DNA of 64,000 nucleotides from Chloroflexus sp. (GCA_020723995.1 DYHT01000005.1:3211-67210), one strand, 5' to 3'; counted from the stretch's first letter, positions 19,698 to 22,673 are shown. Notes: generated by a model from the sequence alone, not told the origin. Numbers and translations: made by a program.

Positions 19698-21377
19698 ATG
19701 CCTCGTAAAACGAAACCCAAGCCTCGTATTCCCCGCTACCCGCAGGTAGGCCTACTTCGGCAAGGCGCCGCGCGTCCTGAACCCAGCCCAGACGCCCATG
19801 GCGGCCAGGCCAGGGAGCAAAGTCGAAGGGTTGAGCCTGCCGATCTGGTTGGTTCCATTCCCGATGTGGAGCCGGTCGAACCGGAACTGGATGATGAGTT
19901 GGAAGATGAACTCGAGCCGGATTTGAACAATATCATCCCAAATGGCGAAGATGTCAGCGACCTAAGTATAGAAGAGCCGCTTGATCTGCGTATCCCGGCG
20001 CTGGCCGTTGAGCTATCTGAGGATCCGGTGCGCTTGTATCTGCGCGAGATCGGCCAGGTGAAATTGCTGGATGCGGATAGCGAGTTCCGGCTGGCGACGA
20101 TGATCGAAGCCCGCCGCCTGATCTTGACCATCGGCCGCCGCCACACGGCCGGCCGGCGGGTCAAATCCCGGGAGGTCATGATCTACCACGGCGTTCTGGA
20201 TGAGCTGATCACCGCCTGGGGGCGGATGCAGGAAGATGCCAAGCGCCTAGGCACCGGCCTGCCGGATGCAGCCCTGATGCTGGCCGAGGCTCAAATGCTC
20301 CATCGGATGTGGGAGACCAAAACCCCCTCCTACTTGCGCTCTTACCTGGATAGCGAGATGTGGGGCAAGGACCCCTTGTGGGATAGTCTGGTCAGGCATA
20401 CTTACAACGTCTTTCTATCGTTCTACACCCTGCCTGAAGAATTCAGTGGCTGGCTGCTCAATCACATTCACACCCACAACGCCTTACCTGCGCAGCGCAC
20501 CCTGTATCGTAATTTGCCCGACGAAAGCGGACTTAAACGCGAGATCGAGAACATGCGCCTGCGGGCAGATGAAGCCAGCACTTCCATTATCCGCGCCAAC
20601 CTGCGGCTGGTGGTCAGCGTAGCCAAGCGTTACCTGGGGCGGGGTATCTCGTTCCTGGATTTGATCCAGGAAGGCAACCTGGGCCTGCTGCGGGCGGTCA
20701 ATAAATTCGACCCGCGGCGAGGCTACAAATTCAGCACCTATGCCACCTGGTGGATCCGTCAGTTCATCAACCGCTCGATTGCCGAGCAAGCCCGCACCAT
20801 CCGCATTCCGGTGCATTTGTTTGAATCGATCACCCGCATTTTGCGGATTCAGCGCTCGCTGACGCAACAACTGGGACGCGACCCGACTTACGAGGAACTG
20901 GCACTGGAAATTGGTGTGCTTTCCGATGCGGATGTGCAGGCGATTCTGAGGTCAAAGGCCGAGGATATGCCGCTTGATCCGCTCGTTCAACATCGCTGGC
21001 AACTGGCGACCACCAAAGTGGATCGCGTCCTGCGCTCGGCCGAGGAGCCGGTCTCGCTCGAAGGCCCGGTCGGGGATGAGGACAGCAGTCAATTGGGGGA
21101 TTTCATCGAGGATGAAGATGCTCTCGAGCCGCTGGACGCCGCCTCGCGTGAGATGCTGCGCGAGCAGGTGCAGCGCGCTTTGGCGGCGCTTTCCGAGCGC
21201 GAGCGCCAGGTGCTTGAACTGCGCTTCGGCCTGGTTGACGGCAAGGACCACACGCTGGAAGAAGTCAGCCGCTACTTCAACGTGACGCGCGAGCGCATCC
21301 GCCAGATCGAGGCCAAGGCGCTGCGGAAACTGCGGCATCCGACCCGGAGCCGGCATTTGAGGGATTATTTGGCGTAG
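19698..21377 (+). CDS. rpoD: Primary RNA polymerase sigma factor (RpoD/SigA)
   Basis: 559 aa with an acidic N-terminal region, region 2 ([30 protein letters not shown]) and region 4 ([30 protein letters not shown]). Confidence 0.95.
21307..21377 (+). repeat. Left copy of diverged direct repeat (the functional last ~23 codons of rpoD)
   Basis: It shares the identical blocks TCGAGGCCAAGGC, CTGCGGCATCCGAC and AGGGATTATTTGG with 22604-22673, in the same order. Confidence 0.8.
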
Positions 21378-21438
21378 TTGTTGTACAAGTACAGGGATTT
21401 ACGGGATTGGTAAAATAAGGAATGCAACTCCATAAATT

Positions 21439-21467
21439 TTGACAATTTCATGGAGTTGATGTATAGT
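21439..21467 (+). promoter_or_regulatory. Putative promoter TTGACA-17 nt-TATAGT, with the -10 ending 6 nt before the ATG (leaderless-type)
   Basis: Consensus -35, 17-nt spacer and near-consensus -10. The ATG at 21474 follows 6 nt later. Confidence 0.6.
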
Positions 21468-21473
21468 ATATTC

Positions 21474-22622
21474 ATGTTTACACGCGCTTACGAACCCCTT
21501 GACGCCCATCTCCGGCCCAATAAGGTGCTGGTGATTTATGGTCCCCGCCGGGTGGGCAAAACCACCCTTTTGCAAAATTACTTGAAACAGACTGGCTTGA
21601 AGTACAAGCTGGATTCAGGCGATAATGTGCGCACTCAGCAACTCTTGAGTTCGCAGGATTTCAACCAGATCCTGCCATACATCGAAGGCTATGAACTGCT
21701 TGCGATTGACGAAGCACAGAATATTCCTAATGTTGGCATGGGTTTGAAAATCATTGTAGATCAGGCGCCCGGTATCAATGTCATCGTAACCGGTTCGTCT
21801 TCGTTTGAACTGGCGGGACAAGTCGGCGAGCCATTGACCGGGCGCAAGCGCACGCTGACGCTCTATCCGCTGGCGCAATCTGAATTACTTTCCACCTACA
21901 ATAAGTTCGAGCTACGCGAACGCTTGTCGGAATTTCTTATCTTCGGTACGTACCCCGAAGTGCTGCAAGCCTCCACGCGGCAGGCACGCATCGAAGTGCT
22001 GACCGAAATCGCAAATTCGTATCTGCTCAAGGATATTCTTACTTTTGACCGCGTCAAAAGCTGGCGTACTTTACTCGACCTGCTCAAACTGCTGGCATTT
22101 CAGGTCGGCAGTGAAGTCTCTCTGGCGGAGTTGGCTACCCAGGTCGGTGTTGACGTGAAGACTGTCCAACGTTATTTGGACTTGCTGGAAAAAGCGTTTG
22201 TGATTATCCGCCTAAGTGGATTCAGCCGTAACCTGCGCCAGGAAGTGACCAATAAGTACAAGTATTATTTTCTGGATACCGGCATTCGCAACGCCGTCAT
22301 TGCCCAATTCAATGGATTGGATCAACGCAACGATGTCGGCGCGTTGTGGGAAAATTTCATACTCCTTGAGCGCCTGAAATATCGGGCGTATGCGGCGCTG
22401 TATGCCAACATCTATTTTTGGCGTACTTATAACCAACAGGAGATTGATCTGATCGAAGAGCGTGACGGGAATCTGTTCGGGTACGAGTTCAAGTGGTCTT
22501 TATCCAAAGCCGTGAAACCGCCTAAAGACTGGCTAAGCGCTTATCCGGAGGCAGTATTCCAGCTTGTTCATCCAGAGAACTACCTGGATTTTGTCCTTCC
22601 CGTTCGAGGCCAAGGCCTATGA
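21474..22622 (+). CDS. AAA_14 / DUF4143 family ATPase (paralogue b)
   Basis: It has a Walker A motif (GPRRVGKT) and a C-terminal block YYFLDTGIRN..EIDLI..YEFKW (D...ExK, PD-(D/E)xK-like). The last 6 codons and the stop lie inside the rpoD-tail remnant. The ORF track starts at 21450; the start at 21474 is preferred from the promoter geometry. Confidence 0.85.
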   Translation: MFTRAYEPLDAHLRPNKVLVIYGPRRVGKTTLLQNYLKQTGLKYKLDSGDNVRTQQLLSSQDFNQILPYIEGYELLAIDEAQNIPNVGMGLKIIVDQAPGINVIVTGSSSFELAGQVGEPLTGRKRTLTLYPLAQSELLSTYNKFELRERLSEFLIFGTYPEVLQASTRQARIEVLTEIANSYLLKDILTFDRVKSWRTLLDLLKLLAFQVGSEVSLAELATQVGVDVKTVQRYLDLLEKAFVIIRLSGFSRNLRQEVTNKYKYYFLDTGIRNAVIAQFNGLDQRNDVGALWENFILLERLKYRAYAALYANIYFWRTYNQQEIDLIEERDGNLFGYEFKWSLSKAVKPPKDWLSAYPEAVFQLVHPENYLDFVLPVRGQGL

Positions 22623-22673
22623 AAGCTGCGGCATCCGACGAGGAGCAGGCATTTTAGGGATTATTTGGAATAG
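22604..22673 (+). repeat. Right copy of diverged direct repeat (decayed rpoD 3' end)
   Basis: After a 1-nt indel it translates to [15 protein letters not shown], compared with rpo[16 protein letters not shown]. Several differences are synonymous (ACC/ACG, CGG/AGG twice). Confidence 0.8.

Follow-up and report, generated by a model that had tools for sequence, protein, structure and literature searches.

In the 64,000-nucleotide stretch of Chloroflexus sp. DNA analysed here (GCA_020723995.1 DYHT01000005.1:3211-67210, hereafter the window), the primary sigma factor gene rpoD is followed by a single-gene cassette that lies between two diverged copies of the rpoD 3' end. The encoded protein is predicted to combine an AAA+ ATPase, a winged-helix and a PD-(D/E)XK nuclease domain and to belong to the candidate-defence family PDC-S01. 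We give an even chance to the explanation that this insert was captured through homology-anchored recombination at the conserved rpoD 3' end, and not by an integrase. All the evidence is comparative: we infer from it both the recombination route and the direction of transfer, and several of the repeat cases are of common ancestry.

The duplication was analysed by gapped local alignment, which pairs 21307-21372 with 22604-22668 in a 66-nt core having 86% identity, one 1-nt indel and a score of 85. When the 3 kb downstream of rpoD were shuffled 200 times, the scores had a mean of 19.2, a standard deviation of 2.1 and a maximum of 28; the observed value is about 31 standard deviations above the shuffles. 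The self-BLAST of the window gave the same repeat with E = 1.4e-12. Rightwards, the repeat extends to the TAG stops of both copies (21375-21377 and 22671-22673), and its left edge is probably at 21302/22599, where CCAGATCGAGG is found in one copy and CCCGTTCGAGG in the other. A preliminary description of this DNA had reported that the rpoD end recurs, diverged and with one 1-nt indel, at 22604-22673, and the alignment bears this out. The three identical blocks that it listed were all found, in the same order (TCGAGGCCAAGGC, CTGCGGCATCCGAC and AGGGATTATTTGG; 13-14 nt each, the longest being 14 nt), and both its translation of the distal copy and its count of synonymous changes (3 of 6 tail substitutions) were reproduced. 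Over the 66-nt core, the two copies differ by six synonymous and two non-synonymous changes and by the indel. Mainly synonymous differences fit the idea, already put forward in that description, that the distal copy was once a functional terminus in a diverged lineage. The two rpoD ends are about 1.3 kb apart, and this flanking duplication of the target gene end (21302-21377 and 22599-22673) corresponds to the layout of the cis-mobilisable elements (CIMEs).

The cassette consists of a promoter, apparently self-regulated and of the sigma-70 type, and of one open reading frame (ORF). The promoter scan, in accordance with the claim that the cargo has a promoter of its own, found TTGACA-17-TATAGT at 21439-21467, which agrees with the consensus at 11 of 12 positions and has its -10 hexamer (TATAGT) at 21462-21467. 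The -35 hexamer (TTGACA, 21439-21444) is flanked by 14-nt inverted-repeat arms at 21425-21438 and 21445-21458, and the folding of this putative operator palindrome has a z score of -3.65. The ATPase scores 94 bits against the Pfam family AAA_14 (cut-off 27 bits) and 135 bits against DUF4143, and matches the PADLOC profile PDLC04789 (PDC-S01) over the full length (E = 2.1e-147, residues 4-374 vs. positions 4-373 of 375). Among sequences 27-87% identical, G28-K29-T30 of the Walker A motif and E80 are invariant and D79 of the Walker B motif is nearly so, as are E293, E323, D325, E338 and K340 of the nuclease motif E..D...E.K. The homologues have 375-379 residues, and those with ends read finish with ...LP*. 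The ATPase of the window has no stop codon of its own and reads six extra codons (VRGQGL) out of the distal rpoD copy, as far as a TGA at 22620-22622; the reported overlap of this copy with the ATPase stop is thus confirmed.

The predicted structure of the ATPase is poor (mean pLDDT 59, pTM 0.36), its sequence matched no solved structure, and an exact-protein look-up with the 390-aa ORF gave no record. An identical contig of 4 kb is present in run SRR13164374. More than 8000 database proteins match the ATPase at E <= 1e-30; among the 120 matches listed, the identity is 76-89% and one is named as coming from an uncultured spirochete. Plasmids and phages were rejected as vehicles: matches were limited to 6 plasmid and 5 phage records, none of which reached 60% identity. 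Neither between the repeats nor across the whole 2.6-kb islet (21378-23984) was an integrase found, as had been stated for the insert: the islet contains only the ATPase gene, a methylase gene, a repeat element and a DUF5131 fragment. Also, there is no transposase in the insert, and the similarity among ATPase cassettes ends, with no terminal repeats, in the promoter region on one side and at the stop codon on the other.

The rpoD site in related genomes

The gene order in the window is glyQS, dnaG, rpoD, the islet, nuoA and nuoB. Most Anaerolineae relatives keep the order dnaG-rpoD-nuoA, and glyQS precedes it wherever the fetched sequence extends far enough. The genome scan for this site retained 80 species-representative loci, of which 41 were of the Anaerolineae type with both rpoD and nuoA. 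The gap between these two genes measured only 113-382 nt in 36 of the 41 species, and the ATPase was present in none of the 80 loci (0/80). For this reason the gap in the window, 2607 nt with 39-53% G+C as compared to 58-65% in the flanks, is an insertion, and the description of a one-gene insert is supported. The comparison with relatives, proposed in the preliminary description as a way to see whether an uninterrupted rpoD-methyltransferase junction exists, yielded the short rpoD-nuoA gaps but no such junction. Five other relatives with expanded gaps (L011, L012, L028, L031 and L052) have no repeats, and the genes contained in these gaps look, from their translations, like ordinary membrane or periplasmic proteins. 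A second rpoD tail downstream was seen, among 51 relatives searched, in L044 only; L184, which was fetched later, repeats the structure of L044.

Further cassette loci behind rpoD came from protein look-ups. ATPases 87-91% identical to that of the window lie directly behind rpoD in L082-L085, L086 and L157. In the four assemblies L082-L085, whose RpoD is 68% identical to that of the window, the ATPase gene (88%) is followed by a distal rpoD copy and then by a TcmP gene. L086, an NCBI metagenome-assembled genome (GCA_030018695), has the layout of the window with a full methylase gene and a longer DUF5131 fragment. The ATPase of L157 is 91% identical to that of the window. In L092/L093 (RpoD 88%), the ATPase gene, with about 86% nucleotide identity to that of the window, is fused at its 3' end by a deletion to the middle of DUF5131, and the distal copy is gone. 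The search for the same ATPase clade next to rpoD, suggested in the preliminary description, therefore gave at least four other Anaerolineae lineages, and the junction is the same in the three where it survives. The closest relatives without the ATPase, L087-L091 (RpoD 85%), retain the 61-nt spacer, of which the first operator half-site is a part, joined to a DUF5131 fragment, and look like deletion derivatives, not virgin sites.

The junction between the ATPase gene and the rpoD copy is in one codon register in the window, L082 and L086, with a Pro codon CC(C/A) followed by G(T/G)T(C/T)GAGG, which implies one founding event. L082 and L092 differ by about 16% over the last 400 nt of rpoD, but from 36 nt before the rpoD stop to 483 nt past it only 6 positions differ, and the sequence is mosaic beyond. 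This tract shows a recent homologous exchange with a crossover within the rpoD tail. As to the two termini of the window, the proximal copy is similar to the functional rpoD ends of two close relatives, L092 and L087. The distal one has the synonymous codons AAG and AGC-AGG in common with the working rpoD terminus of L157, which is the lineage with the ATPase most similar to that of the window. A 6-nt deletion and several substitutions are common to the distal copies of L082 and L086; these copies therefore travel, or are inherited, with the cassette. 'AGC AGG' was ruled out as a marker of distal copies, being present in the working copies of L157 and L044. The native terminus is not identifiable from the spacer or from the sequence after the distal copy, since both occur only in cassette-bearing relatives and in the L087 group.

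In L157, the contig opens (1-247) with an inverted and slightly different rpoD tail, spacer and ATPase start. This inverted segment is attached to the body of rpoD close to where the repeat begins on the left, and the contig start is probably a chimeric assembly of two strains.

Direct repeats around the ATPase gene in other contexts

A metagenome scan gave 80 loci coding for ATPases 63-91% identical to that of the window, and in 68 of them both flanks were usable. When direct repeats scoring >= 47 just outside the gene were counted, flanking repeats were observed in 13 of the 68 ATPase loci, which are in unrelated contexts, as compared to 1 of 203 control ORFs (ordinary 300-500-aa ORFs of the rpoD loci, mostly core genes). 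The sole control with repeats was a lactate/malate dehydrogenase gene of a Clostridia genome (L067 9941-10855, score 145). A wider BLAST search added L105 and L165/L166, where the cargo is longer. The repeat is the end of a neighbouring gene in 6 of the 13 loci and in one locus of the wider search. The repeats vary from site to site: their sequences are unrelated, their lengths range from 27 to 568 nt, they come from both 5' and 3' gene ends, and some are intergenic. Those that were recognised correspond to the 5' end of a mazG-like gene (L122 and L153), the 5' region of secA (L135), the 5' end of a GNAT gene (L118), and the 3' ends of a luciferase-like monooxygenase gene (L137) and of an integrase gene (L105). 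The repeat of L105 (4532-4972 and 7736-8365; 352 nt, 83% identical) consists of the 3'-terminal sequence of a tyrosine-recombinase gene encoded on the opposite strand, and brackets the ATPase cassette together with 1.6 kb of further cargo.

In ten coding cases, the working and orphan copies showed 47 synonymous and 24 non-synonymous differences. The synonymous excess is significant with respect to random mutation (p = 7e-15) and also with respect to a synonymous share of 40% (p = 7e-6), a value that we would roughly expect if a copy duplicated in place decayed. In L122, all 9 differences between the copies are synonymous, at third codon positions. Mainly synonymous divergence indicates that one of the copies evolved as coding sequence in a different genome. 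In L153, it is the truncated mazG copy that still has its native upstream sequence, the working one being joined to the cargo.

The window itself contains a second case, with a second PDC-S01 gene lying between copies of the glyQS 5' end (span 10878-15066). The direct repeat, 10883-11450 and 14499-15066, measures 568 nt with 97.7% identity. Between the truncated glyQS copy and this ATPase gene there is a minus-strand gene fragment, which we took by eye for the 5' part of an oxidoreductase gene; the left junction cuts this fragment, which belongs to an unrelated gene. At the rpoD site, the tail is repeated around another cargo in L044 (7317-8235) and L184 (3460-4420), which are independent assemblies from a further lineage of Anaerolineales. 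Here an rpoD tail is followed by a 77-aa Phd/YefM-like ORF with a terminator, a second tail, the ORF again and a decayed tail, with a period of 419-420 nt and copies 91-94% alike. Where the Phd-like ORF of L044 occurs at other sites, it is without flanking repeats.

In unrelated contexts, cassettes are similar only over the gene and the 62-86 nt that precede its ATG, with the similarity ending near the stop codon. Of 67 homologous loci, 45 have a well-matched inverted repeat 5' of the ATG, mostly around the -35 hexamer; its position is about -46 to -54 in some two-thirds of the 67. The arm pairs are of 62 distinct kinds, with complementarity kept. At the right end of the cassette there is no lineage-specific operator half-site (7.69 of 12 matches for own sites and 7.60 for foreign ones), and no conserved 3' element was found past the stop codon.

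Some of these loci deserve a separate description. In ten loci (L128, L139, L140, L142, L144, L146, L152, L153, L162 and L122), the ATPase match is followed, after about 8-25 nt, by a gene for a MazG-like pyrophosphohydrolase, and the two genes may form a module. Among these loci, the upstream orphan of the mazG 5' end is found only in L122 and L153; L109 and L110, whose flanks are common with the mazG group, gave no mazG match. The 1337-nt contig L143 contains only the cassette and starts and ends with the same 27 nt, as would be expected either of a circular molecule or of an assembly broken at identical repeats on the two sides.

Proposed route of capture and alternative explanations

Capture at the rpoD 3' end would start from donor DNA of another lineage, bringing an rpoD 3' end, the spacer and the cassette, and recombining homologously inside rpoD. 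At the far end of the cassette, the last Pro codon would be linked to rpoD by an illegitimate joint in a CC(A) microhomology, some 76 nt ahead of the rpoD stop. Equivalently, the fragment could circularise and enter via a single crossover. Either route would leave two rpoD termini around the cargo, one working and one orphaned, and the repeat-cargo-repeat unit would afterwards have been inherited and also exchanged among Anaerolineae by homologous recombination via the rpoD tail. In the window, the Pro codon CC(C/A) abuts rpoD ...CCAGATCGAGG, where a microhomology of 2-3 nt is possible. An orphaned duplicate of the end of the anchor gene is found beside the cargo in the case of rpoD, glyQS, the mazG-like gene, secA, the GNAT gene, the monooxygenase gene and the integrase gene. 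Judging from the 47 vs. 24 counts and from the transfer tract that starts in the rpoD tail, the two copies come from different genomes, and the minimal limits of the cassette fit repeated trimming at illegitimate joints. The capture model accounts for the lack of an integrase, the variable length of the repeats, the use of either gene end and the synonymous divergence, as well as for the shared junction, the mosaic tracts and the trimming of the cassette to its functional minimum. Since the longest identical block is 14 nt, the cassette is probably fixed and its repeat-mediated loss unlikely; RecA needs a minimal length of homology.

Several points weigh against capture by this route. No donor, excised circle or clean empty/filled pair of one population was seen among the sequences analysed, and these uncultured Anaerolineae are not known to be competent or to take up DNA. 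The glyQS repeat is a mosaic (13 mismatches over the initial 54 nt, a single one over the following 520), so that a sister-chromosome variant of the model or a later gene conversion is needed. On the left, the rpoD repeats of the window group and of L044/L184 begin within about 7 nt of each other (76-81 nt before the stop), and this similarity with two unrelated cargos hints at a preferred site. At least two of the repeat pairs, those of L103 and of L165/L166 from the wider search, have a third copy and may be dispersed repeats. The synonymous counts contain related cases, namely three rpoD-site loci and two L044 copies, and the excess of repeats may mark recently acquired genes generally, the controls being mostly core genes. 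Finally, L095 and L099 are 95% identical from -86 to +35, with sharp limits and unrelated flanks on both sides. Under capture, these limits require at least two successive events, and they are more like those of a discrete element.

The preliminary description likened the layout to the attL/attR configuration of an element that integrates into a gene 3' end. This holds for the structure, but not for an integrase-type origin, because the rpoD-site loci have no integrase and the repeats vary elsewhere. A remnant of an integrative or cis-mobilisable element, with the rpoD copies as attL/attR and the integrase lost or acting in trans, seems to us unlikely. Integrase-less elements flanked by att sites are known as CIMEs (PMC5704250), and the layout is that of elements targeting gene 3' ends. 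The three identical blocks of 13-14 nt could contain a crossover core, the tail-cargo-tail-cargo-tail order of L044/L184 resembles tandem accretion at an att site, and the left edge is similar in two different cargos. Nevertheless, the cargo is a single gene, an integrase is lacking not only in the islet of the window but also in L082-L086, L092, L093, L044 and L184, and no conserved site is present at the right ends of the cassettes. Moreover, elsewhere the cassette is flanked by unrelated repeats of 27-568 nt, from 5' and 3' gene ends, which one site-specific recombinase would not be expected to give.

To an equally limited extent we consider that the gene mobilises itself: the winged-helix domain would bind the palindromes of the left end, the PD-(D/E)XK domain would make breaks that release the cassette or cleave the targets, and repair by the host would make the long duplications. 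The sharp and minimal limits of the cassette over dozens of contexts would be explained in this way, and so would the abundance and spread of the family (the more than 8000 proteins and the spirochete-named one among the matches listed), the conservation of ATPase and nuclease motifs and the paired palindromic sites at the left end, one of which has at its centre the endpoint of the L087 deletion. In the one assay found, a PDC-S01 representative gave no protection of E. coli B against phages T7, T5 and T4 (bioRxiv 10.1101/2024.09.26.614923), which also goes in this direction. However, the right end lacks a lineage-specific operator half-site, no strand-transfer enzyme is encoded, about 80% of the loci have no detectable repeat, and a staggered cut made in place would not yield the synonymous divergence that indicates a copy from another genome. 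It is similarly improbable, in our opinion, that PDC-S01 is a recombinase-less selfish cassette, whose ATPase-nuclease promotes its own capture at the ends of conserved, often essential genes; if so, the duplicated ends would be homology arms carried along by the cassette, by which it could spread between lineages, and their position would protect it from imprecise deletion.

Even less weight can be given to a local event, with the rpoD end duplicating around a resident gene, either in place or through unequal crossing-over, and the orphan then decaying without any transfer between lineages. An array such as that of L044/L184, with its regular period and copies 91-94% alike, can expand via unequal crossing-over, and the glyQS repeat has only one mismatch in 520 nt. 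On the other hand, random decay would not give mostly synonymous differences, the islet differs in G+C content from its flanks, the insert is missing from most relatives, and the cassette is nearly identical between lineages whose rpoD differs by about 16%. That the distal segment is a conserved regulatory element or a chance match has practically no probability. Had this been so, an rpoD-tail copy could occur downstream of rpoD without any ATPase gene, and such copies do exist in L044 and L184, but they bracket another cargo gene and are not a regulatory element. The score with respect to the shuffles, the 47 of 51 relatives tested without a second copy and the absence of any Rfam family in 21000-24200 refute this reading.

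Annotation of the islet and relation to known systems

The features of the rpoD and glyQS regions of the window are collected in Table 1.

Table 1. Features of the window in the rpoD and glyQS regions.
Feature	Position	Strand	Basis or remark
gyrB	8959-10872		truncated glyQS 5' copy directly after
Truncated glyQS 5' copy	10878-11450		
Second PDC-S01 ATPase gene, 437 aa	11707-13020		E = 2e-105; 27% identical to first
Uncharacterised ORF, working glyQS next	13368-14258		sulfatase-modifying-enzyme-like label unconfirmed
glyQS	14377-17535		
dnaG	17546-19675		
rpoD, primary sigma-70 factor, 559 aa, intact	19698-21377	+	Pfam Sigma70 regions 1.2, 2, 3, 4
Proximal repeat copy: working last 25 rpoD codons and stop	21302-21377	+	alignment, self-BLAST
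Spacer from rpoD stop to cassette left limit, 33 nt	21378-21410	+	differs from spacer common to L082, L086, L092, L087
Cassette left part: operator half-site (degenerate), inverted-repeat arms, promoter	21411-21473	+	promoter scan, fold
AAA_14 + DUF4143 ATPase-nuclease gene, 382 aa from homologues' ATG	21474-22622	+	Pfam, PADLOC
Distal repeat copy: rpoD pseudo-terminus, 1-nt deletion and in-frame TGA	22599-22673	+	alignment
Weak hairpin then T run after distal copy, terminator-like	22680-22708	+	sequence conserved in L086
N6/N4 DNA methyltransferase gene, 3' end truncated	22749-23562	+	Pfam N6_N4_Mtase; PADLOC type II MTase
MITE-like element, perfect 12-nt terminal inverted repeats	23563-23715	+	one of four window copies
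DUF5131 (Gp37/Gp68-like) C-terminal fragment, last 50 codons	23716-23854	+	Pfam DUF5131 profile 193-243
nuoA, first native gene past islet	23985-24341	+	pre-nuoA promoter region conserved in L087-L091

The insert is an old, probably fixed and decaying defence islet behind an intact rpoD. L086 holds a full-length orthologue (329 aa) of the methylase, and its orthologue of the DUF5131 fragment is matched in PADLOC as the B subunit of the candidates PDC-M41 and PDC-M30. A terminator 3' of the distal copy was not supported, as the hairpin has a fold z score of -0.74 and is not called by the terminator scan. The place of the methylase 3' end and of the DUF5131 5' part is taken by one copy of an element like a miniature inverted-repeat transposable element (MITE). 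The four copies (4569-4723, 23563-23715, 27288-27438 and 55290-55444) are 151-157 nt long and 98-99% identical; they have the terminal inverted repeats GTAACTATTCAG / CTGAATAGTTAC, and the sequence inside these folds strongly (-64 kcal/mol). Another copy lies directly 3' of the nuoE stop. Between nuoE and nuoF, L087 (13863-14192) and L092 (14558-15249) have a nucleotidyltransferase gene, with a HEPN gene beside it in L092/L093; the precomputed gene call of L087-L089 lists the nucleotidyltransferase only. This insertion in the nuo operon, where the window has the MITE-like element, is like a toxin-antitoxin pair. Upstream of dnaG in L086 (1273-2692), a reverse transcriptase gene (RVT_1) is followed by a bAvd-like gene, a pair that looks like a diversity-generating retroelement. 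Elsewhere in the window there are a perfect 106-nt tandem duplication (40334-40544) and a short array of tandem repeats shifted by about 7 nt (34309-34398).

PDC-S01/COG1373 is a very common, unvalidated candidate system in which an ATPase is fused to a PD-(D/E)XK domain (PMC12988326; PMC3424549), DUF4143 being classed among the latter (PMC3424549). The gene of the window is a full-length member (E = 2e-147) and is stand-alone, as in the family; it can be considered a candidate defence gene only. The literature found on PDC-S01 deals with abundance and phylogeny, with no flanking gene-end duplications or palindromic operator, which is weak evidence. Among the closest parallels are loci shaped by homology-facilitated illegitimate recombination (HFIR) or C-terminal displacement, such as the rhs, contact-dependent inhibition (CDI) and type VI secretion system (T6SS) loci, where a conserved resident gene is the anchor that receives a new 3' part with cargo (PMC5361080; PMC3240628). 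In these loci, too, the old 3' end is orphaned downstream, direct repeats result and arrays can accumulate, as in L044. Unlike them, here the anchor is a housekeeping gene (rpoD, glyQS or secA) whose protein is unchanged, no polymorphic toxin is involved, many anchors and also 5' ends are used, and the cargo is an independent gene with its own promoter. Integrative elements and CIMEs (PMC5704250) likewise leave the target gene intact and can form tandem arrays; in contrast to them, the fetched rpoD-site loci have no integrase or relaxase, the repeats vary, the cargo is a single gene and no evidence of excision was found. The insert differs from an insertion sequence or transposon, having no transposase, no terminal repeats, and long and variable duplications. 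It also differs from an integron gene cassette, since it has its own promoter, no conserved 3' element (attC) and no integrase nearby. The minimal mobile elements of Neisseria are cassettes without mobility genes that are moved by homologous recombination in conserved neighbours; unlike what was observed here, they need two-sided homology, and gene ends are not duplicated.

The practical result for the genome itself is modest. PDC-S01, which numbers roughly 39,000 genes, is listed as the fourth most common 'defence system' of prokaryotes, and how single-gene defence systems move without mobility genes is poorly understood. The signature offered here consists of orphaned ends of conserved genes, with mainly synonymous divergence, around a promoter and one ORF. 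If this pattern holds in a matched survey, rpoD, glyQS, secA and other essential genes would be landing pads where accessory genes arrive via ordinary recombination, and the orphaned ends would provide a simple annotation marker for integrase-free acquisitions. In that case PDC-S01 itself may be partly selfish and would deserve re-examination.

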